This document shows, piece by piece, positions 1 through 60,430 of a stretch of 64,000 nt of DNA. This DNA is from Marsupella aquatica. Taxonomy: Eukaryota > Plantae > Marchantiophyta. The stretch lies in assembly GCA_973895155.1 (NCBI GenBank), contig OZ316894.1, positions 18,514,805 through 18,578,804 of the forward strand. Reading direction: 5' to 3'. Under the pieces are notes generated by a model. It ran no database searches and was not told the origin of the DNA. It saw only the letters and a program-made list of their open reading frames with translations. How positions within the stretch are numbered: the stretch's first letter is position 1; each line of letters opens with the position of its first letter. The position numbers and the translations under genes are program-made.

Positions 1-3000
1 GAACAAAAGTTTGTGAGGAGACCTTGGTACTTTCGGGATACTCGAATGATGTCCAAGGAAGCAGCTGACTGGGAGACACCCGTTCTTTGGGTTCAAGTGA
101 AGAAAACATAGAAGATTACACTCTCCTTTGGTCCAGTAATTTGGGTTGCCGCATGTGACTTTAAGAAGGGTCATGGGAAGGAAAAATCTGTCGCTATTGG
201 ATTGAGCTTCCTCACAATGTGTGGAAGCAAGGGTTTTGTGGCCCTTGTCGTGGACATGGATTTGTATGATCTCTCAACATTAGACAAATTTCCCAAAGAC
301 CCTATTGTGAAGGAAGTCGCGAGTACAATTGAGATGGAGATCTTCAAGCCTGAGTGGGTTGCTAATGTTGTGGATGATTCGAGTCCTTTGATGTTGCCGT
401 TTGTCCAAAAAGAGTATAAGAGACTCGTGGGTGAAGAGTTTAAACCCACACGAAGGATCAAAGTAAGGAAGCCAACCATTAGCGGGAGTGGCGCATCTTC
501 AGTTGCAAAAGGAGTTGATTGTGCTAGTGGGAGCGGGGGACATGGGAAAGGGAATTCCCAAGTAGAAGCTACCATGAGAGTGATTCTAGGTGAAGCACCT
601 CAATCTGTAGAGGCAAGCCCAAGCGCTACTGCAAGTGTTGGTCGTGGTCGAGGTCGTGGAAGGGGAGTTGTGGATGAATTGGTACCTGTCAAGGCAGAGG
701 TTCCATCGCCATCAACTTCACTTGCAAAGAAGAAGAGGACTGGTTGGATTGGAGGCACAGGAGTAGCTCTAGCTGCAGATTCAAGTGGTGCAATAAGCAC
801 TCCAGCTGTGTCAATGCATCAATCCAAAGAACGATTACCCCTTACCTCAGGTCCAACCTCAGCTGTCGTTAGCATTCCCCTGGTAAGTTTATTTGTCTAG
901 AAAAAATGAATGTTGGGAGCGATACTTGTATCACGCATTGCATTGAAATAATGAAAATGGTTTGCATTTTGAATTCTTCTTAAAATTCATTGCAAGCCAT
1001 GTTATTTTTCAGGGAGATGAGGAAGAAGAGACGTCGTTGGCTTCATTTGAGACAGATGCCATCAAGGCTGAACTTGCAAAGCTCATGCTTGAACGTAGAG
1101 TCCAGAGGACCAGTGTGCTTCTGCATGTCAATAATCTCATTTTTGAAGATGAGGGTGAGAATTCAACTTTAGTTAGACCTGTAGATCGGCTACATGTAGA
1201 GAACATCAAAATGTTGCTCATGAAAAACCCTTCCAACTTCATGGCTCCATTTGTTGTTGTAGTTGATCCAACAGATTGTCCCACAATTCATGAGTGGGAC
1301 ATTACTAAATCTAGGGTATGGAAGTATCGAGTGATTGGCGGTAATCATGGAGCTCGTGCAAAGGCTGAACTTTTCAAAATGTATGGAAAGCAAGTGTACG
1401 GTGAGATTGAGGCATGGGTTTACTCTGGTCTAACGAGACATGAGATCAGGATGTTGGCTTTCCAGCATAACTACGACCAGGAGTACCGTAAAACCATGAC
1501 ATCGATTGACAAAGTTCGTGCCTGTCACAATATTTTCATGGAAATGAATGTGGGGTCAACTAAAGAGGTGCGAGAAGCTTGTTGTAAGGAATGTATGCTT
1601 GATTACACTCCAGGTGTTCGTGACTCAATGGCCAAACATGACCCTACATTTCAGATTGCCTTTCGATCTGGGGAGATTTGGGAGCTCCAAGATAAAATTT
1701 TCTCTATGTGGCAAAAGTTTGAGATCCTTGGTCAAACAAAGCCAATCGTGGCCAAGTAGCTGTCAGCAACATCAAAAGGTAAATCAAAAGCTAAACCTAA
1801 ACCGCTGAGTGCAAGTGAAATCAAAATGAACAAGCTCTCTGGGCATTTCAATTTGAGGGTCTTCAGAGCTCTCCAGGGGCTTTCCAATCAGGAGCATGTG
1901 AAGCGACTCCTAAACAGAGTAATTGGAAAGAAAATCACTCTAGAACAAATGTTCAAAGAAGGTGAGACACTTAAGAAGTTGGCAAAGGTAAAGAAATTGT
2001 TCCTGCAGATTTCTGGTCAAAAAGATTGGGCAACATGCCGGGAAATGTTTCCCCAGGAAACTGATGTGAAAGTCCTTTCAACTTGGTGCGAAAAGCTCAC
2101 AGAAGCAGTAAGCACAATGTCCTTATGGCCTTTTGTTTTCAGTTATATATATTCAAAGCAAACATTTGAGATATTGAATGCAGGTAGTGTTACTTGTATC
2201 ACTGGTGGCATTCAAAATTTGTGTTTGGAAATCTTACAAAGAGTTTTGTTTAATGTGCAGTTCAAAATCAGTTCAAAGAGGAAGAAAAAAGTCATTTCTG
2301 GAAATGAATTTGATGAGGGCGTGGAGGTCGAGATTCCTTCATGCGACATCCCCTACGTCTTCAAGAACTATGTTCTTGAAGCAATTGAAAAACACAATCG
2401 GAGACTGAATATCTCATCAATTGCTACTGCTTCATCTCAACATCAATGGAAGAATGCAAATGGAGACGCATTCTCATATTCTCTTCATGTTGGAGATATT
2501 CGGAAACTAGAAACCTTTCTAGAGCCAAAACATTTCACTTTGGCAATTGCAGACATCCCGTACGGTTTCAATGCCCCTGGTTCTCAGTTTGACGAGGAAC
2601 CTTTCACTGAACAGGATGTAAATGAGATGGTTACTAATTTTGCTAAAATCACCACCTCTCCATTGTGGAGGTTTGTTATGATCCATTCCTTGCAGCAGAC
2701 AAATAGCGTTATGAGCGCACTTGAGAAGGTTTGCAATTGCGGAGTTGAGGCCGGTATATGGGAGAAGACAAACATCCATGAGCACCCTTCTGGGCCAAGG
2801 CTAGCTTGGGCTTTTGAGAACTGGTCAATTGGTTATTACAGTGAGGATGGAGTCCGAAAGAAGGAGATGTACAATTTTGCTCCTGATGAGTCCAGGGTGA
2901 ACATTGTGAAAGTTCCCTGTGTTACTACAAAGTGTGTGAGTCTATTAGGGTTTATTGTAAACCCTTATCAAAAACCAATTGCATTGGGTGATTGGTTTGT

Positions 3001-3376
3001 TAATCATTTCAGTGAGAAAGGGGACTGGGTGGCAGACCTTTGTTGTGGAACTGGGTCAACATTGGTGGCTGCACTTCTCAACTCTCGGAATGGGTGTGCT
3101 GTTGACAAAGGTGAGACTCAGGTAGAATTTTTGAGGAGTCGGATTATGACATTGGAATCTGTTTGGACTCTATACGATGAAGCACAAGTGTCCGGTGAAG
3201 GTGGCCAGGGACAAGAAGTTCAGCCTCCGGTTGGTGGGCAGTTGGGAGTCATTGGTACTAGCATTTATGTGGATACTGATGACCAGGAGGAGCCTGAAGA
3301 AAATGAGCCAAACATTGAAGAAAAGCTACCTAGAACACCGGACGACGGGGAACTCAATGATATGTTGTTAGATTAG
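1..3376 (+). pseudogene. ParB/Srx-like domain + beta-class N6-adenine/N4-cytosine DNA methyltransferase (multi-exon, 5' end outside window)
   Basis: One frame after removing GT-AG introns 883-1012 and 2108-2260; in-frame TAGs at 109-111 and 1757-1759. ParB-like VRPVDRLHVENIK...YRVIGGNHGARAK. MTase motif IV LHVGDIRKL...LAIADIPYG precedes NPYQKPIAL...SEKGDWVADLCCGTGSTLVAA..R...VD (motif I), the beta-class order. Confidence 0.85.
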
Positions 3377-6300
3377 ATGTGTGCAATAACACTATTGAGG
3401 ATTTATCAAGGCTTTCTATTAATGATTGAGAACCTTGATAAACATATCTCTATTTGAGGTTTGAAATGCAATTGGCGATACATGTATCGGATGTAGCATT
3501 CCCAACAACATTCCTACCTATCTGCACTTTTCCTACTCTAACTAGTCACAGTCATCTGCATCAATGATTTCCGTGTCGAGCATTGCTGCTTGGATGATTC
3601 GCTTTGTTTGTACTGGAAGCGTGTTGTTTGAGAGTAGTGCAAAATTATATGCATAAATTGCAGTTTCTGAGAGGCACAATGTGTCCTCAAGTAACTTGTT
3701 AGAGGATGCAGCTTTTTTAGGGTAATATTGACCTTCCATAGCAGACCCTTCTCGAGAATCCATTGTATACCATACAATTTTGATGTTCTCTGGAACATCT
3801 TGTACTTTGGATAGAATATCTATGACTTTTGCCATCCAAAATGGTCTGCTGTTTGGATCCCTATATGCAGCCACGCAAATCATTGCATATTTAGTGTTCA
3901 CTTCAAGATCTTTGAAGTCTCCCTCGACTGCTTTCTTCTTCCTTGTTCCAGAGTACATGACTGTTGTTGCACCTGCAATTTTATCTAGCAAGGTTGGCTC
4001 TATTTGTGGGGGAAGTGCATTTCTTGGAGTCTCTACTCCAATATTTGATTTTGGCCACGTCCAATCAAAAACCCATTGTCCTTCCTTCAAGTGGTGTTTA
4101 ATCACTTCTTTCTGGTTGTCAAAGAAACGGAGCCACCAAAGTTTATCCTCATCATCAAAATAATTGAATCCATCTTCAATTGATTTGCGATATTTCTCCA
4201 GGACTGCAACATGGTTGCAGAGAAGACGCTCGTCTCCATTGCCTCCGTCATCATGTTCATCATTCTCCATTGTTGCTCCGGTTGTAGATTTCAATGCCAT
4301 TTGTGCAGCAACCCACATGGTAGATGTGGGGATGTATCTAAGGAACTCCACTGCTTCTCCCCAACTTTGAGTGCTAGAAAGATGCTTTGCGTGAAACAAA
4401 GTCGAAGTTCCTCCATTCTCTCCTACAACCCTCTTCATCCTAAATTGCTTTTGACCACTAATACCATGTAGAGGACACAAAACATGCCCAATACCTCCCA
4501 TGTCATTGGGTTGGTCTTTATCCGACACAAACTTCTTGAAATCAGCAACCTCTTCAACAAAAATTATCTCAGCCTTTGGATTGTACGAATCCTTGAGAAT
4601 GTCTGCAAGACTATCCACCCGAAAAGCTTTTCGCTTATTTAATTTTGAGGAGAACTTGCTGAACATTTGGTCAATCTGATCATGGGTATGTCCAACCAAA
4701 AGAAAACCAACTTTGATCTTTTGGAAAACCCTCATCTCAACAAGCATATTCAAATATGCCATGAGAAATTTATTTTTATTTTCTCGAGGGGTATTATCAA
4801 GTTGTAGATACAACACTGGAGGGAGTGGACCTTCCCAACTATTTAAAATATGTTGGATCACATGCACTGTCAAGTTGGTGTCGTTGTGAATGTTTGGATA
4901 ATTCAAAAACACTTTTGATGTCAAATGTCCATTGAACACCAAACAACCCACCACATGTACCGGAATAAAGTACTTCTCGTCCATGTTTTTGGGGCACCTA
5001 GTGAAATGTGGCAACTCAGTCTTTTTTTGATCCATACCATCAATGCAGATCCCCAAATATTTTTCTGGACTCTTATAGCACTTGCTTCGGTGCTTTGCTA
5101 ATTTCTCGCTCTCAACTCCTTGTGCTTTCCGATGTTGGTTCAAAAGTGTTGAATATTTTCCTGTCAAATGAACGTCAATGTTTTTGTCAATAATAACCGC
5201 ATCACCAAACCAAACAAGTAAATAATGTAGTACTTAACATCAATCCTTTACTTATTTAAAGGTAGACACAACTTACATTTTTCTGCTTCAAATACTGCTT
5301 TGTCGCGAAGTGCTTTGAACTCTGTGCAAGGACCGCATGTGGAGAAGCGACTCTTTTTTGGAATATGCACCCTGGGGAACTCTTTGTTCCAGATGCGAAC
5401 AAACCAAGAATATGTGATCTCGGTTTCCTTCCACACCATAGTATCAGTCTTGAAAGCATCAAATACTTCAGCTTTCGTCCAATTGTCTGGTAAGTGGAAG
5501 ATGTCCTTGTTTGGAAGACTTTCAACATTTGACATGAAAAACTCATTCAACCATTGAACTAGTGAAAGATGAGTAACCGATTTTTCCTTGCAAAATGTGT
5601 CATTTTGAATACGAGAAAACGTATTCCTTGAGATTCTCTGCAGCCGATTATTTCCAACGGAAAATAATTTCTTGAAACCTTCTCGACAAAAAGATCTCCC
5701 GTCAACAATGTAACCGGTTGGACCACCGTGCCCACTTTTCAAACAGCCCCTTAGAAGTATGTTCTTCTCGGTCGATGATAAGCCATAATAGAAAGTCCGG
5801 TGTTTTGTCACTAAATCTAGACCAAAATATCTCAAACACAAATTATCACAACATGGGTACTTAAAAACTTCTTTCATTTTTTTTGTCTTTAAATTTTGAT
5901 TTGTAACATTATCTTTCCTCACAAGCTTGTCTCTCACTTTCTTGCTAAGCTCCTTTTGTTTCTCCATACTGTGAAATCCATGGAGTGAATGTTCACTCTC
6001 TTGTCTCTCTGCAACTTCCAGAATAGAGCCATTAGTATCTTTTGAGCTACTATCATCTGAAGATAGAGTGGGATTTCTCGGATCACTAAAGAGATGACTA
6101 TAGCTACTCTCGCCCTCATTTGTTTCCAAACATTCTGATACAACTTGTGCAATGGCTTGCGACTGTCTATTTTCCTCAACATCTTCCTCCTCACTTGACT
6201 CATCAGAAAACACTATTGGACTTCTTGGTTCTCTGTACATAATTCGGACTCCGCTAAAACTAGTGAGGCCTCGTCTAGCAACTTGAAGACGTCTAATTGG

Positions 6301-7769
6301 CTGTCTAGAAACACTCCTAGTTGCAGAAGTGGGTCTGGTGGTCATCAATGGTGTGTCTTGATTGTTCCCCAAACTTGTATTGTGTACACGAGCGGCTGCC
6401 ATTGGTCCATTGATTGGAGAAGCATCGAATAATCGTTGTACACATCTTCCCACTGCAATTTGAGATTGCGCAGATTCTGGACTTTGTAGTCCGTTGTCTT
6501 TGCTGTTGCTGGGAACCAGTTCTCTTTGACGCAATGCAGACGGCAATCCACGTACCGTTGTGTGTATTGTACCTTGCATTCTCACGTCTGTCCCAAGAAA
6601 TATCCTTCGCTGCACCTGTGGCAAAACTGATTCCCTCAAAGGCAATGCAAATGGCGATACACATATCGCTGTTTGCATTCGACCTTCTCATCTCTCCTTT
6701 GGCACCTGTTGGAAACTTGAAGCATCAATTGGAGATCCCAATCTCGTTGTCGATACGCGTATCGTCTTCTTGATTCCTTCACCATACCCAGGGATAGACG
6801 GTCTAAATCGACGTCTAGAACCTAAACCTTGGATAGAAAGCTTTTGCATCCGAGGGGAGGGAATGTTTAGGAGCCGACGTTTATCAGGTTTACTAGGTGA
6901 CACATAGTAAGCCCCAGGTTCTGGTTCAGAACTTCCATCAGAATCAGAGTCCGATATTTCGGGTACACTCTATTGAGAAACTGGGAGTAATTTGCGAATA
7001 TGATTTGGCAAACATCGACGACCATGAGGACCACCATTGGGGGAGGACTCAACTGAACTGGAGGGCGACCACTCTTTAGACATGGCTAACGTATAACTAA
7101 CTCTATACTGGTGGGCATTCCTGTCACAAAATGCTCTTATGCTCAAAAAACTCAAATAGACGCATAACTTTGTGAAACAAAATGGTGCAAAAAACTTAGT
7201 CGGCGTTGATGTATTTATAGTTTTTGGTGACCCTGAGCCACGTGGCTACTTCTGACTGGTCAGCCGCTACACGACAAAATAGATTGGGTGATTAAAAAAG
7301 GTTCAAATTAGTGTTTTAACGACAAAATTAATGTACATGTTAAGTGTTTCCTTCAGGGTGGATGCAATTTTTATTCTATTTGGGATATTGTATAGTGGAT
7401 TGCTTTAATCAACCATTGAGACAATTTGGTTCTAGATGCGATACAAGTATCGCTTTTTGTATTTTGGGGTGATTTTTTCAAATTGGTCCTGTAAAAGGTG
7501 CACATATTGTGCTTTGGAGTTATGTACCATAGTTTTGCTGATTCACAATCACTTTTCATGATGGTTAGGCGGAATGGTTACCATGATTTTGTCACTTAGT
7601 TTACTTTTTGGTTAAAAGTAGATCAACTGCGTTGAACTGTGTAGTAAATTTTGGGCAACTATGATGTAACTTTTCAAATTGTTGATAGTAAATTTTTTGA
7701 AAGGAGAGGTTGAGCTACTTTTGGAGTATATTCTCAAATGATGAATGTGGTTTGCGATACGAGTATCGC
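919..7769. repeat. Dispersed 16-bp palindrome GCGATAC-NN-GTATCGC (6 copies)
   Basis: Copies at 919-934, 3475-3490, 6654-6669, 6750-6765, 7438-7453 and 7754-7769, each with 0-2 mismatches to consensus. Confidence 0.8.
3542..7083 (-). pseudogene. Sola-like (DUF7869-type) DDD transposase
   Basis: Motifs ICIDGMDQKK, LYLQLDNTPRENKN, VGHTHDQIDQMFS; upstream Cys clusters (CCDNLCL, FCREGF, CGPCTE). ATG at 7083, in-frame stops at 6970 and 6688, intron ~5161-5276. Confidence 0.75.
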
Positions 7770-8092
7770 TAGTTGCTTTCCTTTATATGTTTGGGTTTGG
7801 AAGCAAAACTATTTTCCATGTGTACAAGTTGACGGAAAATAAGGATTTTCCATGTTGGAAACAAAGTTGAACGTTGTCAACAACAAACAGTACATTTCAG
7901 AAGTTTAAATATATATAATGAGGTAGTCTGTGGGCATTGCTCACCCCTTCAATGAAATCCCATCTACGATACAAAAATGTAACTATTGGGATATTGCGGA
8001 ATTTTGGATCGCTATTTGTGTCATTTCAACAAAATTGGCGAGAATGAAAAACACCCTTCTCTATGTGCGGAAATACTTCTCAATTGGTCTGA

Positions 8093-8328
8093 AATCATGT
8101 TATGTGCGCAACTGTGCACCATGTCACCTTCCCAACATTGATGGTACAGTAGATCCAAGCTTGGCACATGTTTGTGCTGGCTTGAAATGTATGTTGTGTG
8201 GATTTGCTCAGGGAGCAGCTACTATGTTGATTTGTGATAAGTGTTCTAGAGGATGGCACATGTCATGTTTGACACCACCATTGCAGGTGATTCTTAGTGG
8301 ATCATGGTTGTGTCCTCACTGTCGGTGA
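8093..8328 (+). pseudogene. PHD-finger C-terminal tail of a Ty3/Gypsy-type pol (5'-truncated)
   Basis: RNCAPCHLPNIDG...CMLC...MLICDKCSRGWHMSCLTPPL...WLCPHC (C4HC3), followed by a purine tract (ctaggggggcgat, ~8491-8503) and a TG-starting LTR-like sequence. Confidence 0.65.
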
Positions 8329-28435: not shown

Positions 28436-29409
28436 GTGCCTTGTAGGGCCTGTCCTCCATTGGTCTCTAGTCAACTATGGCATGATGCATTCCTAGCTGG
28501 TGCTAGATAGTTGCTTGCATCATCAGTTGAAGACCCCGAGCAATCATGTACCCCCGCACATGTTCCGGCAGATGTTGTTCATGAACCCATAGTGGTAGAG
28601 TTGGGCATGGTAGGGATGATGCACCGCCCCCTACTAGGGTTCTACGCACAAGACCATGTTCTCATAGACGTCGACAACAACATGTAGTTCTAGACACAGA
28701 CCCATCCCATGAGCACTTTAGAAGGAGTGTTATGCCTCCACCAGGGGAGGAGTACATAGAAGTTGAAGGGAGATTGGGCTTATCATATGTGACGGGAAAG
28801 GCAATTAGTGTCTTCAAGGATTTTGACCCTGAGAGTTTTGCGATTCCTCGTGGCCTAGCCATTGATATCCCTATACATATATGGGGTCGGCAATGGATAG
28901 TGAAGGCATCGACCCTTGGCGGGGAGGTTGGATTAGGCTTATGTGCTTTGGAGGACATTGAGGTCCCTCCAAAGCCTTGGCGTCGTGGCTATGATGGGGA
29001 ACACCTTTTCCCTTACATTGGGCCTGTGTATACATCCAAGAGTTGGAACATCCTCTTGCGCCAACATCCAGCTTGGGGGGTATATGCATTGCAGATGGAC
29101 TCAGACCCAGATGAGGTCCTAAGGAGGCCTTGGCATTGTAGGATGATTGATGGGGACCCTGTGCGTTCAGATAACATAGCTGGGTACATCAATAGTACAC
29201 ATGGTAGAGGGAGTGGACTCCAGCCTAATGTAGAGTGGGCTCAGATTTTTGGCCCACCCACTCCGCCTTACTATGTCACACATATGGATGATCATGTTAT
29301 GACAGTAGCCATATGGACCCGAGTACGGACCATTAGGGCGGGTGATGAGTTGTTTTGTGACTATGAATGGAATGCACCCAAGATGGGCATTCGATCTGGC
29401 CACACTTAG
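28436..29409 (+). pseudogene. SET-domain exon inside CACTA-A
   Basis: GLGLCALEDI...PYIGPVY...YALQM...IDGDP...NIAGYINST...PNVEW...RTIRAGDELFCDYEW. Phase-0 acceptor at 28435; one TAG (28508) and one frameshift (~28600) upstream of the intact SET ORF 28732-29409. Confidence 0.8.
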
Positions 29410-30520: not shown

Positions 30521-30782
30521 TATAAGTATTATATTAATAAATAATACATATTATATCATTTATTGATTCACAAAGAATAATAGGATAGAGATCATTATTT
30601 ATGAATTCACAAAGAATAGTAGGATAGAGATCATACTTATAAAAACATTTCAGCACAAATAAACCCTTGAATATGTGTGAACAAAATGACATAACTCCAA
30701 ATAGATTATAAAATAATATACAATTATCTCCAAATTTACAATGTATTTCTTCTATCTAAGGGGCTTAACATGAGTCATATCT

Positions 30783-31850
30783 CTAAACAAAGTGCTCCTT
30801 ACAATGTGTATTTGAGCACGTGCCCCTGTCTCCTTTACTATCTACCCTAGTGTCACGGTTGCAAGTCCCTTTATCTTCAGGGAGCTGAAACTTGGTGGTG
30901 TTGTTCCTAATGGCTATAATCTCCCGCAAAAAGTGTCTGGGATTTTCTCTATGCGGACCTGAATAGTCCCTTCCTACAAATGCTTTAGCAAGTGACGTGA
31001 CAAGTGCATCGTCAAGTTCTGCCTCAGGACGTAAACTACATATACGATGCTTCACGTTCCAAGGAATCTCATTGCTATTGAGGTCCAACACACTATGTGT
31101 AAACAGTGACTTCCAAATTTTTGTTGCACATCTCTTACTAAGTTGATCATAAGTAATTTCATTTTTTACCTTGTCTCTCTTTATGTGCAATAGAGACCAC
31201 AGTGGAGAGTTAAGAAGAAGATAACATCTAATGTCACTTGCATGGGATAGTTTCTCAAGACAAGGCCAAAGAATTGTTAGAAGAAAATTATCTCCACCAT
31301 TGGCATGCGTGTAGGGCACTGGAAATAGTCCGATCATGCTTGGGTTGGCAAATGCCTTAAGGGGGGAGTCATCCACAAGGAGGGTGTTGGTTTCATCATA
31401 TAGATTTCCAAATCCACTCCATACCACCCGAAAATCCTTCAGTAGCACATTTGCCTTTCCGTTTGTAATGTCATGCCTTTGAATGCCTGTGTCAAAGGCT
31501 TCCACTTGTGTGAATACAAACTTAAGTTTCAACCGCTCCTCAGCAGTGAACATCATGTTCAGCATTTTCACTGTTCAATGTACCCCAGCACATGTCCAAA
31601 TTGCAACGTCAAATCGGTCAAAAACCAACTTTAGAAACTCATGGAGCCCTGGCCTTTCTGTGTACATGCGACTAATTCCATTTTTTCTATCCCAATGCAC
31701 TCCACTTGGGATCACAACATTTCTGGATTTGCCCTTGCTTTGGAATTCAACTGAATCCCAAAGTATTTTGTTAAGATCCAAAATCAGCAATTTGCGCTTG
31801 ATGGAACAAGGTCTTGGTTCTGCAAGTGCAACAAATACCAATCTTAGAGA
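30783..31850 (-). pseudogene. FCP1/NIF-like HAD phosphatase-fold domain
   Basis: KLLILDLNKILWD...RPGLHEFL...FDVAIWT, in-frame TGA at 31575, ...LLKDF..VW...NTLLVDDSPLKAFANP. The DxD motif reads DLN. Confidence 0.75.
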
Positions 31851-32303
31851 TAAAACCACATTTGAAGTTTGGATGGAGATCATCTCTGTCAATCCAACAC
31901 AAGTGGCCAACCACAAAGAAAATATATCTGCATACTGATCAGATTCATTGAGAAACCGTAAAGAGGAGATGGATATTGATACTGATGCTCTAATTGTTAA
32001 ACTTGCCCAGAGAGGCATGACTTTGTGGTAGCTCACTTGAATTGAGACTCATAGGTCTTGGGTTCAACTGTTGTGGCTGACACTTCCCAACTATTGTGGC
32101 TGACTCTTCCCTTTCTGTGGGGTTTCACAGATTTCCCTTTAAAAATAAAAAAAATAAAAATAAAAAATTGTTAAACTTGAAGTATAATTATACAGACTAT
32201 ATTATATCAAATTGATAAGGTCACATCGCTCAATCTAGACCTTGGCTAACAATGCGATCCATATTCATCAATCAAGATATCATCACCGAGTTCTTGTTGG
32301 ATC

Positions 32304-34240
32304 TCATAATTGACATCGGAGGTACTCTCCTCTACCCAATAAGGTGCAGACCAAACCGGAGTTATCAATACTCCCATACTCAATGTGAATACTCAGAGTT
32401 TTTGAATGTCCTAATTTACGAAGAGCGCTTAGGACATTCAGTACAAGATAACCCGAATGGACAGTTATCATCACAACAATGGTAGGATTCCGTGGTAGCT
32501 CTACTATATATTGGAAGAGGACCAAAATCTCTACTTCAGTCCACTCTTTTTGCTGAAGTTGGTTGAAATCAACAATTGCAAGAGGGCATGTTGGAGATTG
32601 TTCTTCCAACGACTCCGGATCCACAGTCTTCATTAGGTTGTTACTAAAAAATGTGACCCACGGCTGGGTCCAAGAACTTGTCCCACCGCCAAACTTTTGA
32701 CAGTAAATATCATCTAGACGCATCACCAATGTCATTGGCAATATCTCACTCTCCTTTGTATGATTTGACTTCAACAAATTTGTCAACCATACATCGCCAG
32801 CTGCTCTTCGGCACCTGTTCAACTCCGAATCGGGACCCAATAATGGGAGGACTTCAATCACTTTAGCCCAATCAGTATCTGCTGGGAAGTGTTTTGGATC
32901 CTTCTTGAAGTAGTAATCTCCAATAAGAGACTTCAATTTGATCAATATCTTCACCTCCTTTGCAAACTCCTCCATCGCTGGAACATCTGACTTATTAGTC
33001 GGATCTTTCTTCAATAAAATCTGACCCGACTTCACCTTGTTCAAAATTCTGGTCAAATCTCTATTTGAGATTTCACCATCAAAACAACGAAACATGGCGA
33101 CGGTTATCGCCTTTTCGGACCTTTTGTTTCCCTGTGTACCAGCCCCATCAGGAAGTTTTCCATCAATCCACATCTGGCACACTAACTACCATAACTCGAA
33201 AAGATCATTCTCGGCAAAAAGTAACCAGTATACATTTTTCAAGTCTTTTCTCCCCATGGTCATCCTTGCCAATGCCAGATAATCCTACAGTCAAAAATTA
33301 GGGAGAATGTTGTAAGTTATCTACAATCAATGAGATTTGATAACACAATCGCTTGCTTGGACAGAGACCATCTCCGTCCAAGCCATAACCAAAAGTAGAA
33401 TGAAGTAAAATCTACAGAATGGAAGGTCTCACTCTTGGACAGAGACCATCTCCATCCAAGTCATAACCAAAAACATATTGAACTAAAATCAATGTAACGG
33501 ACGGTCACACTCTTGGACAGAGACCATCTCTGTCCAAACAAGAAAAATGTTTCTCACCTGAAATTTTTGACTCTCTTGGGCGTTTGATTTGTTGTCCCCG
33601 TGCTTTGGCTTTCTTGGTCTTCCAGTTTCAAGGAATTGTTTTCTTGCATGAACAATTGTATCTTTGAAGCACGATTGAAACACCATCGAAGAATTGATGG
33701 CATTTGATCGCATTGAGTGCTCAACCAGTATAGCCGATGGCGTAAGGTCTAACAATAATCTAGCCTTCCTATATTTTAACTTTTTTGCCAAAACTGTGAG
33801 CTTGGCATCAGTTTCGGCCCACTCAAGAACCCATTTGGCCGCCCTAGCAGAATGTTGCCCACTGACGGCAAGGAAAACAATCTCGCCTTTCTTCACTCCT
33901 GCAAGAAGGTCTTTGCGGTCGTTCTCCGTGCTGTCAAAATGAAGCAGCTTTCTAAGTTTTGGATTGTAAGGAAGAAGGTCCGCAACGTGAGGTTCATGTC
34001 TAGGGTTTTTCACCATGGATTCGACTATGTGCTTCACATGGGCACTGTTGAGCATCCTGTAACATAACCTTGCCGAAGCTGGATAAATTTTCTCCACTGG
34101 AATAGAAAATATTTCATTTATCCCAAAAGTATAGTACTGCTCTATTCTTTGGAGAACATCATTCCCTTCTAAGACCTTCTTCACCTCCGGGGCATCAAGT
34201 TTGTCTCCCTCATCCTCTGGGAGCATCTATACGTCCGTCG
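32304..34240 (-). pseudogene. ParB-like gene of element G, 3' exons (ParB domain + possible degenerate MTase region)
   Basis: YRMLNSAHVKHIVESMVKNP...FLAVSGQHSARAAK...HSMRSNAIN aligns by eye with E1 (HVENIKMLLMKNP...IGGNHGARAK). Downstream ILNKVKSGQI and PLAIVDF parallel E1 LLNRVIGKKI and LAIADIPY. Confidence 0.65.
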
Positions 34241-34243
34241 GAG

Positions 34244-34771
34244 TTGACCGCGCATGCTTGGGCTGAACAAGAAGTCTGGGAAGCAAAGGCACGGCTTGCT
34301 GATGTCCAATATGGACCTGTACTCAACAAAGGACAGAGCTCTAGAAGGCTGAAGAGTATGTTGGCTGAGGAGACGAAGCAACCAACCCCCATTCTGAAAG
34401 GGCTAAGCATGGTATTTGTGGAGGCGGGAATTGGAGAGGTTAAGTGCAAAGTGTACAAGTCCACGGTGCTTGACCTAGGTGGGACAGTGGAGGAGAATAT
34501 AACAGAGGACACCACTCATGTCATTACTAAGTCATATCCCAAAGCCTGCCGCAAGTTTGGGAAGGGAGACATTCGCTTTTATGTCATGTCCCATAATGTG
34601 TTTGTGGTTTCATATGCTTGGCTTGTGGAATCAGTAGCAGCTGGGAAGTGTCAAAACCCAATGGACTATGATCTTTTTGAGGCCTGGCCACGGAAGGGTC
34701 AGGATCCTTACAGAGAGGACTATGAGACAACAAGTGAGGAATGGGTCATTAGCGATTCTGAATCAGAGTGA
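34244..34771 (+). CDS. BRCT-domain ORF (5'-truncated), probable CACTA-B cargo
   Basis: ILKGLSMVF...LGGTVEENITEDTTHVIT...VVSYAWLVESVAAGK...DY matches the BRCT consensus. Confidence 0.75.
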   Translation: MTAHAWAEQEVWEAKARLADVQYGPVLNKGQSSRRLKSMLAEETKQPTPILKGLSMVFVEAGIGEVKCKVYKSTVLDLGGTVEENITEDTTHVITKSYPKACRKFGKGDIRFYVMSHNVFVVSYAWLVESVAAGKCQNPMDYDLFEAWPRKGQDPYREDYETTSEEWVISDSESE

Positions 34772-35303
34772 GGAGTAGTAGCATCAGTTTGGACACAAGT
34801 TTTTTTGTATAAATCAGATCATTGAAATAAATGTGATCTTTGAACTAATGTACCTTGTTATGGTTGGTGGCAGTTGGGCTTATTTTACTGTTGGCGGATT
34901 GTTGTTTCCTCCTGCCTGGGGGTGTCACTGTAAACGTACTGGGTGGGCTCAAATCTCGGCGGTGAGATATCTAATACCGCTCTCACACCTATGCCTATGA
35001 CTATACATGATTGGACTCTGATATGGTCATGGGTGTACATGCAGAGGCGGTACATTTGAGGACAGCTGTGGAGGTGGTGACACCCTCAAATATTGAGGAA
35101 TTTTGTGTCATTCACTTGACAATAGGTACACTACTCGCAAACCTGTTTTTTTCTTTTGGGGTGGTTTAGGGTTTGTGAGAATTTATTACACGTTATGTTA
35201 ACTCTTTTGGCACATACAGTCAGGGATATATGGAACACAAATACCACCATTAGGCATCCCTGTTCACTGCTGTCCATGACTGTAGAGCTTCCAGCCTGTT
35301 ACA

Positions 35304-38300
35304 ATGCACCCTGGTCACCACCCTCCCCAAACCCAGCCCAGGGCACAGGCACTGCCTTTGCATCATCCCACAAGGATATCACGCCATGATAATAAGCTTT
35401 GGCAGCGTGAAAGGTTACGAATCAGACTTTCAGGAGCCAGTAGGATGAGATGTCCTTGTGCAATCTGCCAAGGATCCCGTACCAGGGGTCTGAATGAGGT
35501 TTGGCGGCATATCGCGGTTCATGGAAGAGATCCACGACATCGAGTTTGGAATGATCCTGCAGAGGAAGATTCTTCCGACGAGGAGTGGAGGTTAGAATTT
35601 GATGCTGCCAATGCTGCAAGACGGGCAAGTGAGGTTCTGCCTGGTGCATTTGACAATGTTGTAACTGGTCTCTGTGGGTTGTCAGCTCTCCAACGGGATG
35701 GTGCTCAGGCAGCACCACGTGACGAAGGAATTCATGTGGAAGAGATGGTGAGAGACATCTTCCAAGACTTGGATGCATTTCACAATGGGCTGGACAACGA
35801 AGAGGATACGGCTGCAGATGCAAGTGTGCCCCCTGTCGAAGAGCCTCTTGATGAGTTTGAGATAGGGCAGGAAACCCCTGGGCATGATGAGATGTTTGGC
35901 TCTCCCCTACAAATACAGGAAGGCAGGAAGTCTTTGTACCCTGGTAGCAAATGTTCTAAACTGGGATTTGTCATCATGTTCCTGAACATTTGCGGCAACC
36001 ACAATGTCCCCAACGTTTTAGTTTCTGAGTTGTTGGCATTCTTGCGAACAACTGTGCTACCAGATGGTAATATTTTGCCCAAGAATATGTACGAGGCAAA
36101 AAGATGCATATCTAATCTTGGATTGAACTATGATTCCATCCATGCCTGTCCTGATGGGCATGTTCTTTTCAGAAAGGAGTATAAAGAATCGTTGACATGC
36201 CCTAAGTGTGGGAAGCACAGGTATCAGAACTCAGGAAAGTCTATGGTTCCCGCCAAGGTACTTCGTCATTTTCCACTCATTCCCAGACTTCAGCGGATGT
36301 TCAGAAGCCATGCCATCTCGGAGATGATGACTTGGGCAACTAACAAGAAAAGTGATGATGGGCTACAACGACATGCTGCAGATTCAAGGCAGTGGAAACT
36401 CATAGATGAGATGTATCCCGAATTTGTTGCTGAGCCGAGGAATGTCAGACTTGGGCTGTCATTGGATGGGGTAAACCCATTTGGAGACAAGAACAACAAA
36501 TTTTCGTGCTGGCCTGTAACTATTTTGAATTATAACCTTCCTCCTTGGATGACTACAAAGCGATTTTTTGTTCTGATGGTCCTACTGATACCAGGGCCAG
36601 ACAGTGCTGTATCTGCCAACATAGATGTGTTTCTGGCTCCCCTAGTGGAGGAATTGAGAAAGCTTTGGGAGGAAGGATTTCTCACATATGATGTCCTACA
36701 GAGGCTTGGGAGGTTAAACCCATTCATCCTTAGAGCCATCGTCATTCTGACTATAGCTGACTACCCAGCCCATGGGATGATATCAGGCCAAACAACAAAA
36801 GGATATTGTGCTTGTACTATCTGTGGGCGCAATGTCACCAGTGAGTACTCCAAAGCCCTGCAGAAAGTGATATACATGGGCCATCGTCGTTTTCTGAAGG
36901 CAGATCACCCTTACAGAGAAAGACAGGCACTGATTGCACACTTTGGCAATGACATTGAGCAACGTGGACCCCCGACACGAGTGACCAAAGAGGAGATCAG
37001 GCAGTGGGGAGCACTGAGGGATGACTATATCAAACGAGGGGGCAGGGAAGATAGAGTGAGTGATCCAATAAAGCGATATGGTGTAAAAAGACTGAGCATA
37101 TTGGACTTGGAGCTCAAGTATTGGAGGGTAAGCCTCTTGGAGTTGATGCTAATTGGGATACATGTTTTGGTTCAGAGCATGTGCATTCATTTCGAAGAGA
37201 GAGACTAAACTTGAGGCATTTGCTGACGCTTTTGCATTGCAACGGTGCAGGAGTTTGAGCCAAGCAAACATAACATTGATGTTATGCACATTGAAAAGAA
37301 TATTTGTGAGAGTCTACTCAGATTCTTGTGTGGAGAGAAAGACACTGGTTCAGTGAGATTGGATCTTGAACAGAGGGGAATGAAACCCCATCTTTGGTTG
37401 AGGCCACATGCCCACAGAGCTGATGTGCTCTTGAAGTACCAAGTGCCCTATGTTCTGACAGACACAGAGTGGGAACTATTTGTGCAGAGGTTGAGTTCTT
37501 TGAAGGTTCCTTCAAACTATGGCAGTGCTTTCAAGAAGCATATCATGACTAGAAAGCTTGGTAGTATGAAAAGCCATGACTACCATATGTTGATGCAATA
37601 GGTGTTGCCTTTATGCCTGAGGGGCCTGTTGCAGAAGCCTGTTCGTAATGTGATCATGCGACTCAGTGATGTGTTTCGTCGTATTTGTGTGAAGGTTTGG
37701 GATGAAACACACTTCCCACAACTGACAGAAGATGTCACTCAGGTGCTGTGTGACCTGGAGATTTATTTTCCTCCCGCATTTTTTGATGTCATGACCCACC
37801 TACTTGTCCATGTTGTGGAAGAGCTACACCAATTTGGGCCTGTGAGTGCTCGTTGGTTGTACCCTTTGGAACGGTACATGAAGGTACTCAAAGGTCACGT
37901 GAGAACATATTACAAACCTGAAGCAAGCATGGCTAAAGGTTACATCAAGGATGAGACTCTGGGATTTCTGACCGAATACATAGCACAATATGAGCATGTG
38001 AAGACCAGGGTGTGGAATTCTGATGAGGAGGAAGGGGTGATAGGTGAAGTACTGGAAGGGGCTGCAACCACAAAGAACCTGACCATATCTATGAGAGACT
38101 TGGCACATGACTTTGTATTACACAACACTGTGGTGATGGAACCCTGGATACAGTGAGTGCATACATGTGCTATAATTCAGTTCATGAGCTTAAATGTTGT
38201 GTGCGTGTGGTTTTCTCCTTCAGCCTGTTCATGTTTACCCAAGTTAATGCTGTGTGGTTGTTTGTTCAGGGAGTATGAGTCATTGAAGGCGGCCCATTCC

Positions 38301-39035
38301 ACTGCAGGAACAACTTTTCCAGGTTTCATGGAGTGGATCAGAGTGGCAATTAGAGAGCATCACGAGACCCACCCAGACATGGATGCAGACGTTTACCTAC
38401 TGTCTAATGCCCCTAGCCTGAAAGTGAAGACTTACAAACGGATGAGAGCATATGGGAATCACTTTCGAGTGAAGGATGGTGACAGTGCCTACAGGGTGAC
38501 GAATGACTGTGGGCTCATCACTGTATTTGAGCAACAGAGCCACAATCACGACAGGGCCTGGATGGAGATGGGATATGTGGGAGAATTAGTTGACATATGG
38601 GCTCTGGACTATGGGGCGGTGTCCAGTCCTGTGATTCTTATGAAAGGTTCATGGGTGCGGCAGGATTGGCTTGGTAACAGGGCTACCATGAAGAGAGACA
38701 ACGACGGTTTCTTGCTAGCCAATTTCAGAGGGAAATTGCCCGAATGGTCTGAGCCATTTGTGTTTCCCAGTCAGGTGGAGCAAGCTTTCTTCCTGGATGT
38801 GGAAGACTCCCCAGGTTGGCGTGTAGTGTGTCATAAACAGGCCAGGCAACGTCGGATGGAAGGATCAAACCTTGAGTTTCATTTACACTCTCATAGTGCC
38901 TTTGATCGTCGGCGTTCAGACCAAGTGCCTGTAGTTCATGATAGCGGGGACTTCATTCCTGTGACAAGGGTAGATGCATTTGCTGAAGGAGGCGAATTCA
39001 GAGATGCAGATGCCAACAGTGTGCCTGTGCCATGA
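35304..39035 (+). pseudogene. CACTA-B TnpD transposase
   Basis: CPCAIC..H, IHACPDGHVLF, RNVRLGLSLDGVNPF, ADYPA, DVMHIEKN, KSHDYH, FFDVMTHL, YPLERYM, EPFVFPSQ. Introns ~37128-37250 and ~38154-38269; in-frame TAG at 37599. Confidence 0.93.
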
Positions 39036-39189
39036 GTAATGTGAATTGTTTGCATGGACATTAGTGAGGGGAAGGATGTGTAATAAAGTAATTCTGAAGC
39101 AACACAGATGTATGGATGGATGCCTGGTCATTGTGGGTGCATTGTGTTATACGGGGTGACCATAGATGACATGTTTTTGTGGTCCAGTA

Positions 39190-42100
39190 GGATGGAACAG
39201 AGTGACACAGAGATGTGTGAGTATGAAAGGAAAGCTATGGAACAACGAGCAAACGTGAAAGCCAAAATCGCAAAACTGGATCTGGAAAAGGATGTGGCTG
39301 AATTGTAAGGGAACAATTCTCAACTACACCCCTCCGCTGAGTTTGTGTGACATGAATAGTTCAATGTCGCACTGAAATTGTGACTGTATTCTCATATTGG
39401 AATGTTGCAGAGCCACAGCATTTTCAAAGAAACAAAAGGAGTACGCAAGAAGGGTGACCAACACTATCTTTGGGCCTGTGCGTCGGAGTGACAGGTTGAG
39501 CAAGAAGGTGGTACCTACAATGGCAGAATGTGGAGATGACATGGATGCTGCACAGGTGGGTGCAGACACTAGACAAGAAGATGCAAATGATGAGTATTTT
39601 CCAGAGGAAATGGATGAGGATGGGGGTTATGAAGATGAATACATTGCAGAGCAGCCCCAAAAGAAACAGGTAAGTAGTTTTCCCAACAAGGTTTTGAGTT
39701 AAAAACTCTTATTTGGAGGTTTCATATGTTCAGTACTACACATATGTACCTTGCTTAGTTCCTGACATTGTAGTTGGTGATGTGATGCAGCGTCCTGCCA
39801 GTTCTGTTTTGCCTTCAAAGCCTGTGCATGCACCATACCAGCAGGGGGGGCTGACCTCTGATCAAGGTTGGCGAGGTGGTAGTAGTGGTAGATCCCAGGC
39901 TGGTGCCCAATACTATGGCAGGGGGCAAGCTCTAGGTTATGCCCGTGGTAGAGGCAGAGCAGGTCCAAACCCACAGTCTCATGGGTTTGGACGTCCACCT
40001 CAACCATGGGGATGTGAGTATATATCTATATGCCAGTTCTTTGTGAAGGCATGGCACTCCTGAATTTCAGACTGCATATCAATTTTTGACATTGTTTGGG
40101 ATGTATTGGATTCAGACAACATGAAATTCTGTCCACCTACCATTGCATGCAGATTCTGCCCAACCTGATTGGGCAAATGCTAGTAATGATCAGTTCCAAT
40201 GTCCACAAGGACAGACATGGGTTGAACCAGGTTGGGAGGATGGTGGTGGGTCGTGGAATGAATAAGGTTGGGAAGGTGGTGAAGGTAATTGGCAAGGATA
40301 TCAAAATACAGTACCTACAAACGCTGGAAGAGGGGCAGGTAATGTCTGATCTTGTTAGCAATGGAAGAACTCATTATATCTGGAGTCCATTCACGTGGGG
40401 GGGATTCTGCACATGTATAATGATAGGGAATGTATGTGTGCAGGTTGGACAGTCGAACCATCGACTCAAGTATTCACTAATGCCCCTATGCAGATGCAGC
40501 ACGGAAGGGGGACAGGTATGTTGGTGAATGTTCAGTTATTTTCCTACAGTTTGTACTTAGTTTTCAGTACATATGTTTGCACACACATACCTAGAAAGTG
40601 ACATCATTCGGCCCCTGTACTAGGCTGGACAGGTGGTCTAGGGCGCAACAATTTCAGAGTGTAGTCCTTGCACAGGCATCTACAGGCAGAGCTACAGGTA
40701 TGTATGTTTGAAGAATTTTTCTTGAAGTGAAGCATTGAATGTTGCCGTCATCCATTCTGCTGTATGTAGTTCTCAAGCATGAATGGCATTGTATTTTCCC
40801 AGGTGGCTTCAGAACCCCAGGTAGGGTGAATGAAGGGGTGGCCAATACAACGCCCAGTACTACCGAGAGCAGTGCACGAGGGGAGGTGACAAAGAAAGGG
40901 AACGTAAAGTTGAATGAGAGACAATGGGTGGATGCTGAGTGTCCTCGCAAGAACCGATGGCATGCTAATTTGAAAGCTGAAGTATTGCGTTGGTTAGATG
41001 TGAGTGTTATTAATTTTAAAAAACAGCATCCAAAAGATTGGAAGACTGTATGTGAAAATGTTGCTGCCAAATGGAATTATGTGAGCAGTGATGATGGCGT
41101 GGACATAGGTTGCCTAGAGAGTACAGCAGGTAAAATCATCAAGCAAGAGAGGTGGAGAATGCATAAGGCTTGGAAGGAAGGTGGGGAGAAGCCAGATATG
41201 CCTCCACCAGCCAGTTGTGATGATAAAGTGTGGGCAAGGTTAGTAGCTTATTTTGTAACAGATGCTTCAAAAAAGAAGAGTTCACAGATGACCGAGGCCA
41301 GGTTGAGTGTTCAGAACCCTAATCTGACAGGAAGGACCGGCACTGCACCGACAGCTAAACGTTTGGTAAGAATGAATGGCCTAGCTATGTAATTTATGCT
41401 ACACTATGTACTGTTTTTTAGTGTAAACCCATACATGTAAACTTTGTTTTGTAGTGTACGTTCCCTGAATATTGATCGATAACTTGTGTTTGCCATGCAT
41501 GTGCAGAAAGCCCAATTGGGGCAAAGCCCTTCAAAAGAAGAGTTGAGGGCTGAAATTGTGAACACCCAAGCTCAAGAGGGTGCATCTGAATCCTCCAAGC
41601 ATGTAATTTATATGAGTTCTACTTGGTAATTGAATGACCTGCGTTGAATTTCAGGTGTACACTGTATATAACATTGATTGTGCATATATTGCCCAACATT
41701 TCATATGGAGTGATTGAACCTATACCCCTGTGTCATGTAGGGAGGTGGATCTTCAGTTACAGAGATAAGTGGTCATTTGAAGGCTGTCGAAACATGTCTT
41801 CCAGAGATCAATGAACGTTTGAATTCATTGACTGACTTGTTCCATGTGAACTTCAAGACATTAATGGAAGCTGTTGTGTCGGTGAGAGATAAAATTGATT
41901 CCAATTCTGCAGGAGTTCCACCATCACCACTTGAGGTGGCAAAGTCGATGCACTCTTCTGGCATGCCAACGACATGTAGGCTTGAAGGTAAGGCCTTTAC
42001 AACTGTGTGGGATATGATTATTAAATGTATAGTTTGAATTGACATTGTTTGTTGAATGTGTTATTTTCAGTAACATATATTGTGGTTGTTGTGTCCATAG

Positions 42101-42897
42101 AGAATAAGACAGGTGCTACAGAGAAGAAGTATGTGAACCTGGCAAATACTCGCTGTAATTTAGAGGCAACAAAGTTGTAGTTTGTACAAGCAACTTGTTT
42201 GACAGAGGGCAGTCAACCATTTTTGGATGAGGATGACATTGGCAAGGGAGTGGATGATATCAATGTTGGGGCAAATGAGGATATTAGCAAGCATGAGAAT
42301 GATACCATTGAGCCACATTCATGCTATGTAGATCTTGACTCCATTGCAGAGATAAATGATTTGTAGAATGTATCATTCTCAATGACAGGTGTGCCTCTTG
42401 TTGAGATAAATCCAACCAAATAGTTAGTTGGTATGACACTCCCAGGTGATGAACCTGCTACTGTGACAGTCCTAACAAAGGAACCTACTGAGCCTAGCTT
42501 CACTACTGTGAAGAGAGGAAGCATGCGCACACGAAGCAAGTCTGCTGATGGGAGCAGAGCCACGTCAAAGGTTTCATACAAACCTCCAAGAATGGTGCTG
42601 GCAGAAAGATCTAAGGTGGAAGTGGGGAAAGCACCTAATGCTAAGGGACAAAGTGGCTTGTTAGCTGTTGATGAGAGTGGAACACGAGTAGGATTTGGCA
42701 GAGTGCAGGTTGGTTCCACAACGTTCCATGGCAAGAGGATTCCCCCAGGTTATTCAGTAGTGTTAGTCACATTACTAGTGAAACCTAAAGCTGTCCTTCC
42801 CATTCCAAACACAAATGATGATCCTCCTCAAAAGACACTTGAAGATGCTGCAGGTTCTTTGGTATTATGGCCAAGCAAGTTCATAGAGGATCCATAA
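39190..42897 (+). pseudogene. CACTA-B TnpA/Ptta-like multi-exon gene ending in a Tnp1-like domain
   Basis: Many short GT-AG exons; KDWKTVCENVAAKW, VWARLVAYF..KKSSQMTEAR; final exon VGFGRV...HGKRIPPGYSVV...LP.P...TLEDAAGSLVLWP. Confidence 0.7.
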
Positions 42898-43469
42898 CAA
42901 TGTCATGCCATTATTTGTTTGTAGTGTGAGTCATGTTATGTAGATTTTAGATGTCAAGAAGCAGTACAAGAATCATGTCCTCTTGGAGATTCATAGTATC
43001 ATGCATGTGCTTTCAGTTATCTCATCCTGCAGTCATCAATTATGAGTTCCTGTTTTGTCTGAATTACATTGATCACATTGTAAACTATTCCATTGGAATT
43101 CAAATGATCTTCATTTTTTAGCAAGATTGTGATTGTGTTTAATTCTTATGAATGTTTTATGTAGAATCTGCTCATATGATGCTTTGTTTCATGTGGATGT
43201 CATTCATGCTATGTTCATTTCTTGTATTCAATGTGTTATATTTCTAAAGTTAGAACATCAGGTTTCTATGTATTGTAATGTGGAGTGCTCTCTCTCCTTA
43301 TGAACTGTCCCTCTGTGTTCATTAGTCATGGTTATAACTTGCATGTGAACCTTATTAGTTATAAACATGAGTATATAGAGTCCCAAATGGTTCTGTTGTG
43401 TGATGCGGGCCAGGGTCTTCATTGGTCTTTCCTGTGACACTAAATGGTCACACGCTAGTCGTTGTTGAA

Positions 43470-43752
43470 TGCGGGTAAGTCATGTATGTGACTTACGATG
43501 TGACTCGCTGAAGTCATATTGTAGTCACGTAGAAACAAGGCTAGACTCCACAATAAAGTCACAGATCAGTCACAAATGGGTATCAAGCAAGTTGCAAAGC
43601 CCAGTATCAATAGTGACTTCCATTTTTTGGTCTCAACTTTTGCAACTCCAAGGGTCACAGCGTGGGTCAAGTCACGTTGAGTCACAATGAAGTCACATGA
43701 GCCAAAATGAGTCATATATTGCGGTCTCAGTTCACCTCGGATTCTTCTAGTG
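43470..43752. repeat. CACTA-B right subterminal repeats (AGTCAC/GTGACT) and TIR
   Basis: About ten gtcac/gtgac motifs in both orientations, ending in tagtg. Confidence 0.75.
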
Positions 43753-45237: not shown

Positions 45238-46135
45238 CGTGTGACATGTGGCCTTATGGACATGTGGAGGATTGCAGAGCGTTAGATCTAGGGCAATTAA
45301 CGTGGCGGCTATGGGGATAAACTTTAGTGTGGAGGCAGAGCGAAGGAGTGCAGAGGCGTCGGAGTGAAGGAGATTGGAAGCGAATGAGGCGGAGGAGCGA
45401 GCAAAGGAGCGCAAGAGCAGGAGTGGAGAAGAGGAGGAGCGGACAGAGGAGGGAGGAGAGCGAGCGAGGAGCGAGGAGGGAATGAAGAATGAGGCCCAAG
45501 TGGGACCTCCTGCCTCCTTTACCCCCCCGAGGCAAGGCAAGGCACACTGAACATGTGGGAGGCCGAGGCGAGTGGAAAACCCTAAATGCACGGCTGCCCT
45601 AAAGTGCGCCGCCCGACCTAATCCACTCACCGTTGCTTAAGGCTAATCACGCATCGCCTTATCCATAAGGGCGATCTTCAACAACTGGTATAAGATACTT
45701 GGGGTTGTCCGGTTGGTCCTCATTTGGTATTTTCATTTCTAGATTTTTGTTCTGTTCCTCAACCAGGTCGGTTCATTACGGAGCCCCATTGAGATACTCT
45801 TGTTTTCCAGACAGAACATCTAGTTTTAATTTCTTCCACACCCCTGAAGCATTTAGTTTACCAGGTTACTGATAACTACCCCTTCAACACAGTATTTTAA
45901 TCCTTGGTTTGACAACATAAACTAAATTGAGTTTTGGGTTCAAGAATCATTTCCATTACAGGTAACTTTAAACCTAATTATAGAATTGTAGCATATTCCA
46001 TTGATATCCGCAAATTTAGGAATTACTATATCTAAGTTAAGGTTGAAGTGAAAAAATCCCAGCCCAACTCACGATTGGGATAATCTCAATCCAACCGTTC
46101 TTTGCTCAAACATTAAATTAGTGTGTAGAGTCAAT

Positions 46136-46790: not shown

Positions 46791-46977
46791 CTAAATTGGG
46801 ATCAGGGATCTTAGGGCTAGATAGGGACTTTTTGGGGACCTATTATTTTGCTTGATGGGGATAATCCCGATATGCGCACTGTCCTTGGAGAGGGTTGACA
46901 CCTATGTGCTTCCTAGTTGGGACCATTCTTAACTAATACTTTACATTTAAAATTGTGCAGGTGAATACGTTATAGGA

Positions 46978-60338: not shown

Positions 60339-60350
60339 ATATCATGTTAC

Positions 60351-60430
60351 TGTTTAGTTTTTGAGAGTCTGTATATATGTTTTATTTTGTTGTTTAGTTT
60401 TTGAGAGTCTGTATATATGTTTTATTTTGT
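60351..60430 (+). repeat. Perfect 40-bp tandem duplication in the transposase 3' UTR
   Basis: tgtttagtttttgagagtctgtatatatgttttattttgt x2. Confidence 0.9.

Follow-up and report, generated by a model that had tools for sequence, protein, structure and literature searches.

What are the palindromes that lie scattered over a transposable element at the left end of a 64,000-nucleotide stretch of Marsupella aquatica DNA (contig OZ316894.1, positions 18,514,805 to 18,578,804; hereafter the window), and which protein reads them? The element, E1, is a multi-copy DUF7869 DNA transposon with a gene for a ParB-like/beta-class amino-methyltransferase (the ParB-methyltransferase). A sequence-only reading had listed six palindromes of 16 bp in E1, and had proposed that they were either parS-like loading sites for this protein, by which methylation would be kept to the element, or binding sites of the transposase. 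They proved to be a real and non-random cis-element, element-specific within the window and larger than first reported, and the explanation that we favour, with some reserve, is that they are family-specific binding sites for E1's own ParB-methyltransferase, for self-marking or self-regulation. The left end of E1 lies beyond the start of the window, and its analysis covers the part inside (Table 1).

A 38-bp bipartite palindrome in E1

All six GCGATAC-NN-GTATCGC sites were recovered with at most two mismatches (at 919, 3475, 6654, 6750, 7438 and 7754) and in the places assigned to them, namely intron 1 of the ParB-methyltransferase gene, the intergenic gap, the transposase reading frame (two sites) and the region upstream of it (two sites). 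Exact matches of the 14-base core occurred at 7438 and 7754 only, so that two of the six were perfect and four had one or two mismatches. The 64-kb window held no further match at this threshold; the counts were 6 in E1 (8.1 kb), 0 in E2, a second DUF7869 element (20.9 kb), and 0 in the remaining 35 kb, relative to a mean of 0.03 (maximum 1) in 100 dinucleotide shuffles. Alignment of the flanks showed the full unit to be a bipartite palindrome of 38 bp, GAATGC-N5-GCGATAC-NN-GTATCGC-N5-GCATTC, with an outer box 5 bp beyond each core arm, of which only the inner 16 bp had been noticed before. Among 12 half-sites picked by the inner 14 bases alone, 10 had AAT at the outer-box offset (background 0.025; P ~7e-15). 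A 36-bp pattern allowing up to 7 mismatches gave nine matches, against a shuffle mean of 0.07; all lay in 909-7779, and one overlapped the site at 6532. Altogether, eight 38-bp copies were found in the window, every one within E1, the copies at 2176-2213 and 6532-6569 being additions to the earlier six. The inner and outer boxes would lie about one helical turn apart.

Five of the eight sites fall in the non-coding 19% of E1 (P 0.009), and the remaining three in the low-complexity N-terminal part of the transposase. The N5 spacers lack complementarity (only one to three of the five bases pair in any of the eight sites), which fits recognition of duplex DNA and not a hairpin; a hairpin or RNA-structure reading was ruled out on this ground. 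The label 'subterminal repeat' was rejected as well, since the sites span the whole element and none lies in its last 320 bp. Four stretches of the window with other transposons contained no dyad occurring more than twice.

Family copies and close relatives of E1

The two genes of E1 are convergent, with the spliced methyltransferase gene on the plus strand and the DUF7869 transposase on the minus strand; their introns were placed solely by GT-AG boundaries and reading frame. The window copy is in decay, with C-to-T type changes predominating. Private to this copy are in-frame stops at 109-111 and 1757-1759 of the ParB-methyltransferase gene and two stops in transposase exon 1, all absent from the contigs of four runs (two organisms) that cover E1 at about 1% difference. 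The right end was placed near 8101, where the contigs diverge and an empty site was seen in a PHD-encoding repeat. Comparison of the motif with the family contigs covered site 1 and sites 4 to 8. Within 6400-8101, 21 differences from the window copy were common to the contigs of runs X1, X2 and X4. Five of these affected the motif: four moved toward the consensus letter, one was neutral and none moved away; one additional change away from the consensus, at 7451, was present in X4 only, and position 933 read as consensus in all four runs. The family contigs fit the 38-bp motif better than the decaying window copy. Since this copy decays mostly by C-to-T type changes, the decay explains the toward-consensus enrichment, which shows the ancestry of the motif and not, by itself, selection. 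Runs X5 to X7 contributed small shares, X5 in short pieces only. In run X5 (organism C) one contig joins 6546-6591 to 8007-8101, a short rearranged derivative linking the internal site region to the E1 end, and a GAATGC-type motif was observed in a different flanking context near 6753.

Four metagenome loci (L001-L004) encode transposases 63-66% identical to that of E1. In L001 and L003 (63-65%), 4 and 7 core matches, respectively, of a variant motif were found, with an AATAC outer box and a core of GCGAGAC or GCGATAC. The variant sites occupy the transposase intron and the gap downstream, and L003 has them in the N-terminal coding region as well; L001 shows the convergent methylase end as well. 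When the window was ranked with a matrix trained on L001 and L003 alone, six E1 sites came out top (site 2 at rank 5), with sites 4 and 6 ranking 8th and 11th. Site positions turn over among these relatives, and the motif persists.

Different palindromes in other DUF7869 families

E2 sits in a CACTA-type transposase gene, has terminal inverted repeats at about 30373 and 61031 (39 nt) and is interrupted by other insertions; its target duplication is ambiguous (CTAG or TA). A palindrome of its own, TTGGAYAGRGAT-N-ATCYCTRTCCAA (25 bp), is present in 26 copies in 30620-48013 (shuffle mean 0.35). E2 also has separate subterminal repeat arrays (AAATGTACACTTT), which are related to its terminal inverted repeat, so that its end motif and its internal palindrome differ. 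BLASTP of the E1 against the E2 accessory exons gave weak or non-significant matches (best E 0.007). The E2 ParB-like exon was missed by a profile made without that exon (A1); a second profile (A2) matched it, circularly, since A2 contains the exon.

When the transposase alignment was used for a scan, five loci with introns (L005-L009) came up in prokaryote-labelled assemblies. In both of those with long flanks, L006 and L007, a ParB-like gene adjoins the transposase (E 4e-35 and 1e-35, respectively), and all four long-flank elements (E1, E2, L006 and L007) have a transposase and a ParB-like gene, each with its own palindrome. Four of the five loci contained palindromes of their own (30 copies in L007, 18 in L006, 8 in L009 and 6 in L005), and L008 (1.8 kb) contained no repeated palindrome. 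The palindromes of these four loci are simple and have many of their copies in tandem arrays; by eye, the copies lie mostly in introns or 3' non-coding DNA. Cross-matches between the family palindromes were zero, save for four loose matches of the two shortest patterns. In assembly G002, all of the 12 exact matches fell within the element, as did 29 of 40 exact L007-type sites in G001. The palindrome is family-specific across six motif families, two of which occur in one genome. L006 (G002:C41), L007 (G001:C12), L005, L008 and L009 all represent intron-rich eukaryotic DNA inside prokaryote-labelled assemblies, on contigs reaching 0.6-2.6 Mb, and the eukaryotic DNA in G001 is animal-like.

Several further features were observed in and around E2. 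Downstream of the E2 ParB-like exons, at 30783-31800 on the minus strand, lies a NIF/FCP1-like phosphatase domain (Pfam PF03031, E 1e-05), which is possibly fused to the E2 ParB-like protein in place of a working methylase. The ParB-like gene contains at 34106-43450 an open reading frame (ORF) with a BRCT domain (34106-34771), followed by a CACTA-like transposase cluster. Nested in the right end of E2 is an element at 51296-60985 with CTCGGGGGTCTCAC termini and an 8-bp duplication, CATAAATC; its two long ORFs (55750-57846 and 57924-60338) have no Pfam match, and a Cys/His-rich ORF lies near 54589-55266. A SET-like ORF (28585-29409; weak match to Pfam PF00856, E 0.003) lies a short way upstream of the CACTA-type gene into which E2 is inserted.

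The ParB-like methyltransferase

The predicted ParB-methyltransferase of E1 consists, in this order, of an N-terminal part without Pfam match, a ParB-like domain, a helical domain and, at the C-terminus, a beta-class N6/N4 DNA methyltransferase (motifs DIPY and DLCCGTG; Pfam PF01555, N6_N4_Mtase, E 3.5e-07). For the methylase domain of a full-length homolog (P0021), the best structural matches were of the beta class (CcrM, M.BceJIV, M1.HpyAVI, M.RsrI and the bdelloid N4CMT). DIPY suggests N6-adenine rather than N4-cytosine as the predicted target, given its resemblance to DPPY, which we take to be the rule for N6-methyladenine (6mA). The ParB-like domain was not detected by Pfam. ESM Atlas leads for it (1013-1756) were unnamed eukaryotic clusters, DUF3723 (0.96) and ParB_N (0.92), and no paper linking DUF3723 with ParB was found. 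The AlphaFold model of the ParB exon had a pLDDT (predicted local distance difference test) score of 90.6, and its best Foldseek matches were ParB, Noc and KorB over 200-250 columns (E 6e-5 to 1e-3), a span that takes in the nucleotide-binding and helical regions; sulfiredoxin matched over about 110 columns.

A search of a HMMER library gave 140 relatives of the ParB-like exon, and the ten that were looked up included three from Chara, one from Riccia and one from Branchiostoma. Besides P0007, six of 38 scanned relatives passed the N6_N4_Mtase cut-off, seven in all. PDB sequence searches returned weak methylase matches (E at least 0.12) or none, none of 5416 candidates obtained a score when the read-through protein was used in a word-seeded search, and scans of viral contigs gave no matches. 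No ParA-type family was detected by Pfam among six ORFs scanned in the E1 region, the left part of E1 being outside the window. The N-terminal exon domain (1-480) has no Pfam match and resembles by eye the first exon of E2 (not significant by BLASTP); it is a candidate for the reader of the outer box.

Which protein reads the palindromes?

In the explanation that we favour, a dimer of the E1-encoded ParB-like methyltransferase would bind each 38-bp palindrome, with the inner 16 bp read by the helical domain that follows the ParB domain, and the AATGC box read by another contact one helical turn farther out. The tethered methylase would then mark the DNA near the sites with 6mA or N4-methylcytosine (4mC), and the element could thereby tag or regulate only its own family, comparable to VANC on VANDAL elements and KorB on plasmid RK2. 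Control of the transposase promoter would fit the position of the two perfect cores, which lie upstream of that gene. The earlier idea of sites for the ParB-methyltransferase thus holds up to the extent that the motif is element-specific, is conserved in relatives and has a neighbour with a predicted ParB-type fold. The comparison with parS was borne out for the 16-bp palindromic core, which belongs, however, to a 38-bp bipartite unit; by the tests applied the E1 site is not parS, and its role is probably operator-like, serving a ParB-family protein. Loading of the clamp type is doubtful, as the arginine of GxxRxxA, the motif by which ParB CTPases bind cytidine triphosphate (CTP; PMC10419367, PMC10164549), is missing. 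Neither a ParA partner nor a segregation role is evident. CTP-dependent sliding is probably no part of the mechanism.

Several observations weigh against a ParB-based explanation. The motif in place of GxxRxxA is GG[N/G]H[S/G/T]xxA, with S, G, T, C or N standing where the arginine would be in 47 of 50 rows, which makes CTP-driven sliding doubtful. The ten top Foldseek matches had TM-scores of 0.27-0.34 and root-mean-square deviations of 9-19 A, so that a canonical helix-turn-helix is not demonstrated. The catalytic motif of the E2 methylase looks degenerate; methylation may therefore not be the shared function, and occupancy may be the conserved output. Among the close relatives, L002 and L004, which are short and carry stops, had no core match and a single weak candidate each (in the intron and the gap, with scores of 3.1 and 1.1, respectively). 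In G001, 11 of the 40 exact L007-type sites form two arrays, around which neither a ParB nor a DUF7869 gene was detected to a distance of 10 kb, and two other ParB-like loci of this assembly (L026 and L027) gave no clear associated palindrome. No long-flank DUF7869 element clearly without a ParB gene was found among the loci examined, and co-occurrence thus does not separate ParB from the transposase. Finally, in E2 and in L007 there is a weak likeness between the terminal repeats and the palindrome of the same element (25 post hoc tests, p 0.03-0.07), closer than the likeness to the motifs of other families.

The last two points bear on the strongest rival, in which the transposase binds the palindromes through a two-part N-terminal DNA-binding domain, for autoregulation, titration or synapsis; bipartite recognition is known for transposases, and every palindrome locus also has one. 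In L006 the arrays stand between the genes and the element ends, and transposases can be sequence-specific regulators (10.64898/2026.08.24.746577). Even so, we regard this rival as unlikely. The last 50 bp of the E1 right end contain no palindrome half-site (p 0.5-0.9), the full E2 half-site does not match the E2 ends (p 0.8-0.97), and E2 has a separate end-associated repeat. In the example of AtMu1 the transposase binds at the termini (10.64898/2026.08.24.746577). Moreover, similar inverted-repeat arrays stand beside ParB-like genes in red-algal elements with an EnSpm/Plavaka transposase, unrelated to DUF7869 (10.1101/2025.02.11.637652).

A site shared by both proteins, or with a third partner, one on the inner 16 bp and the other on the outer AATGC box in the manner of KorB and KorA, would account for the semi-independent variation of the boxes (in site 2 the outer boxes are perfect and the core is weak, and in site 7 it is the other way round) and for the L004 candidate, in which outer boxes are kept around a changed core. 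We consider it improbable, as the fixed 5-bp spacing in all eight sites is explained equally well by a single two-domain protein and the palindromes of L005, L006, L007 and L009 are simple. Slightly less probable still is that no cognate protein exists and that the palindromes are remnants of tiny repeats, minisatellite seeds or host-factor sites, as the many tandem copies in L005, L006, L007 and L009 and the solo arrays in G001 might suggest, given that the copies in E1 stand singly, that their spacers and flanks are unrelated, that relatives have them at other positions and that three lie within coding sequence, and given that the motif changes from family to family, even between two families of one genome.

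If binding by the ParB-methyltransferase is extended to the other families, DUF7869 transposons from plants to sponges would use a private operator code, in which the ParB-derived protein of each family binds its own scattered palindrome and writes 6mA or 4mC, thereby escaping host silencing by 5-methylcytosine (5mC) or controlling the transposase. They would then form another VANC-like system, the second of its kind and of separate evolutionary origin, that brings its own writer enzyme; this generalisation is put forward tentatively and may well not hold.

Table 1. Features of E1, E2 and the solo arrays, with positions in the window unless an assembly and contig are named
Feature	Position	Strand	Remarks
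ParB-methyltransferase gene (E1 accessory gene)	1-3376	+	Predicted exons <1-882, 1013-2107, 2261-3376
DUF7869 DDE-type transposase (E1)	3542-7083	-	Predicted exons 7083-5277, 5160-3542; Pfam PF25273, E 2.2e-50
E1 right end	8052-8101 (end ~8101)		Inserted in high-copy PHD-encoding repeat; from loose ends and contig ends
Site 1	908-945, core 919-934		ParB-methyltransferase intron 1; consensus letter at 933 in family contigs of 4/4 runs
Site 2	2176-2213, core 2187-2202		ParB-methyltransferase intron 2; 3 core mismatches, both outer boxes perfect; newly added
Site 3	3464-3501, core 3475-3490		Gap between the two convergent genes; gap sites also in L001, L003 and, weakly, L004
Site 4	6532-6569, core 6543-6558 (degenerate)		Transposase N-terminal coding region; family contigs have consensus at 6545 and 6555; newly added
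Site 5	6643-6680, core 6654-6669		Transposase N-terminal coding region; family contigs have consensus at 6663
Site 6	6739-6776, core 6750-6765		Transposase N-terminal coding region; weakest outer boxes
Site 7	7427-7464, core 7438-7453 (perfect)		~350 bp upstream of transposase start codon
Site 8	7743-7780, core 7754-7769 (perfect)		~320 bp inside E1 right end
E2 ParB-like gene	Exons near 44507-43570, 34226-33560, 33290-32300	-	
E2 transposase	46951-50719		
Solo L007-type array	G001:C9:124400-125000		
Solo L007-type array	G001:C15:247590-248000		

Comparison with known systems

The gene pair and the idea of self-targeting are already in print for algal transposons, among them a Sola1 element. 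A 4-bp target duplication belongs to the Sola1 superfamily; the E1 transposase matched Pfam DUF7869 only. In Ectocarpus, Sola1-1_Ec32 has a gene for a ParB-like protein with an N4C/N6A methyltransferase opposite its transposase, and self-binding and self-modification were proposed (PMC12477816); E1 likewise has its gene for a ParB-like protein with an N4/N6 methyltransferase on the other strand from the transposase. In a Plavaka element of the red alga Bostrychia, tandem inverted repeats adjoin the ParB-like accessory gene PAG3; they were proposed as targets of PAG3 and compared with parS, and PAG3 carries a 2-oxoglutarate (2OG)-oxygenase and no methylase (10.1101/2025.02.11.637652). The E1 palindromes resemble the algal type in lying in both ParB-methyltransferase introns and just downstream, and differ from the algal elements, as far as these are described, in their plant host and in being single, dispersed, 38-bp, bipartite sites that also occur within coding sequence. 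The string 'palindrom' has zero occurrences in the main texts of the two papers, and a literature search without subscription journals found no paper on land-plant members or on the 38-bp motif. New here are the defined bipartite site, its occurrence as single copies dispersed over the element and, in plant and animal-like hosts, a motif code specific to each family. That ParB-like accessory proteins target their own element is a prior proposal (PMC12477816, 10.1101/2025.02.11.637652), and the E1 locus makes it directly testable, as it supplies a 38-bp probe of exact sequence, a young family of many copies in whose contigs the stops of the window copy are absent and, in the second family of the same genome with its different palindrome, a specificity control. 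If the proposal is true, a eukaryotic transposon would write non-host DNA methylation for its own use, and a long-site targeting module might be available.

The tested precedent is anti-silencing by VANC of the Arabidopsis VANDAL elements, a protein that binds a motif specific to its family; this motif is enriched in introns as well as in non-coding DNA between genes and at the termini, and related families have different ones (PMC5735166). E1 similarly has a family-specific motif enriched in the non-coding parts of the element. The VANC motifs are 8-9 bp long, non-palindromic and in tandem, and VANC causes loss of 5mC (PMC5735166), whereas the E1 accessory protein combines a predicted ParB fold with a methylase, the two being set apart by domain content, not by sequence comparison. 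With ParB-parS, Noc-NBS and KorB-OB, E1 shares palindromic sites with a 16-bp core and, to judge from the model, probably a ParB-family fold. The bacterial precedent is KorB, a ParB of a mobile element that uses OB sites to regulate this element (PMC11790492). Compared with these bacterial systems, E1 lacks GxxRxxA, has an unrelated site sequence and extra outer boxes, shows no ParA among the six ORFs scanned, and its gene is eukaryotic, intron-containing and fused to a methylase. It is this fusion to a ParB-like module that distinguishes the predicted E1 methylase from CcrM, M.BceJIV, M1.HpyAVI, M.RsrI and the bdelloid N4CMT.

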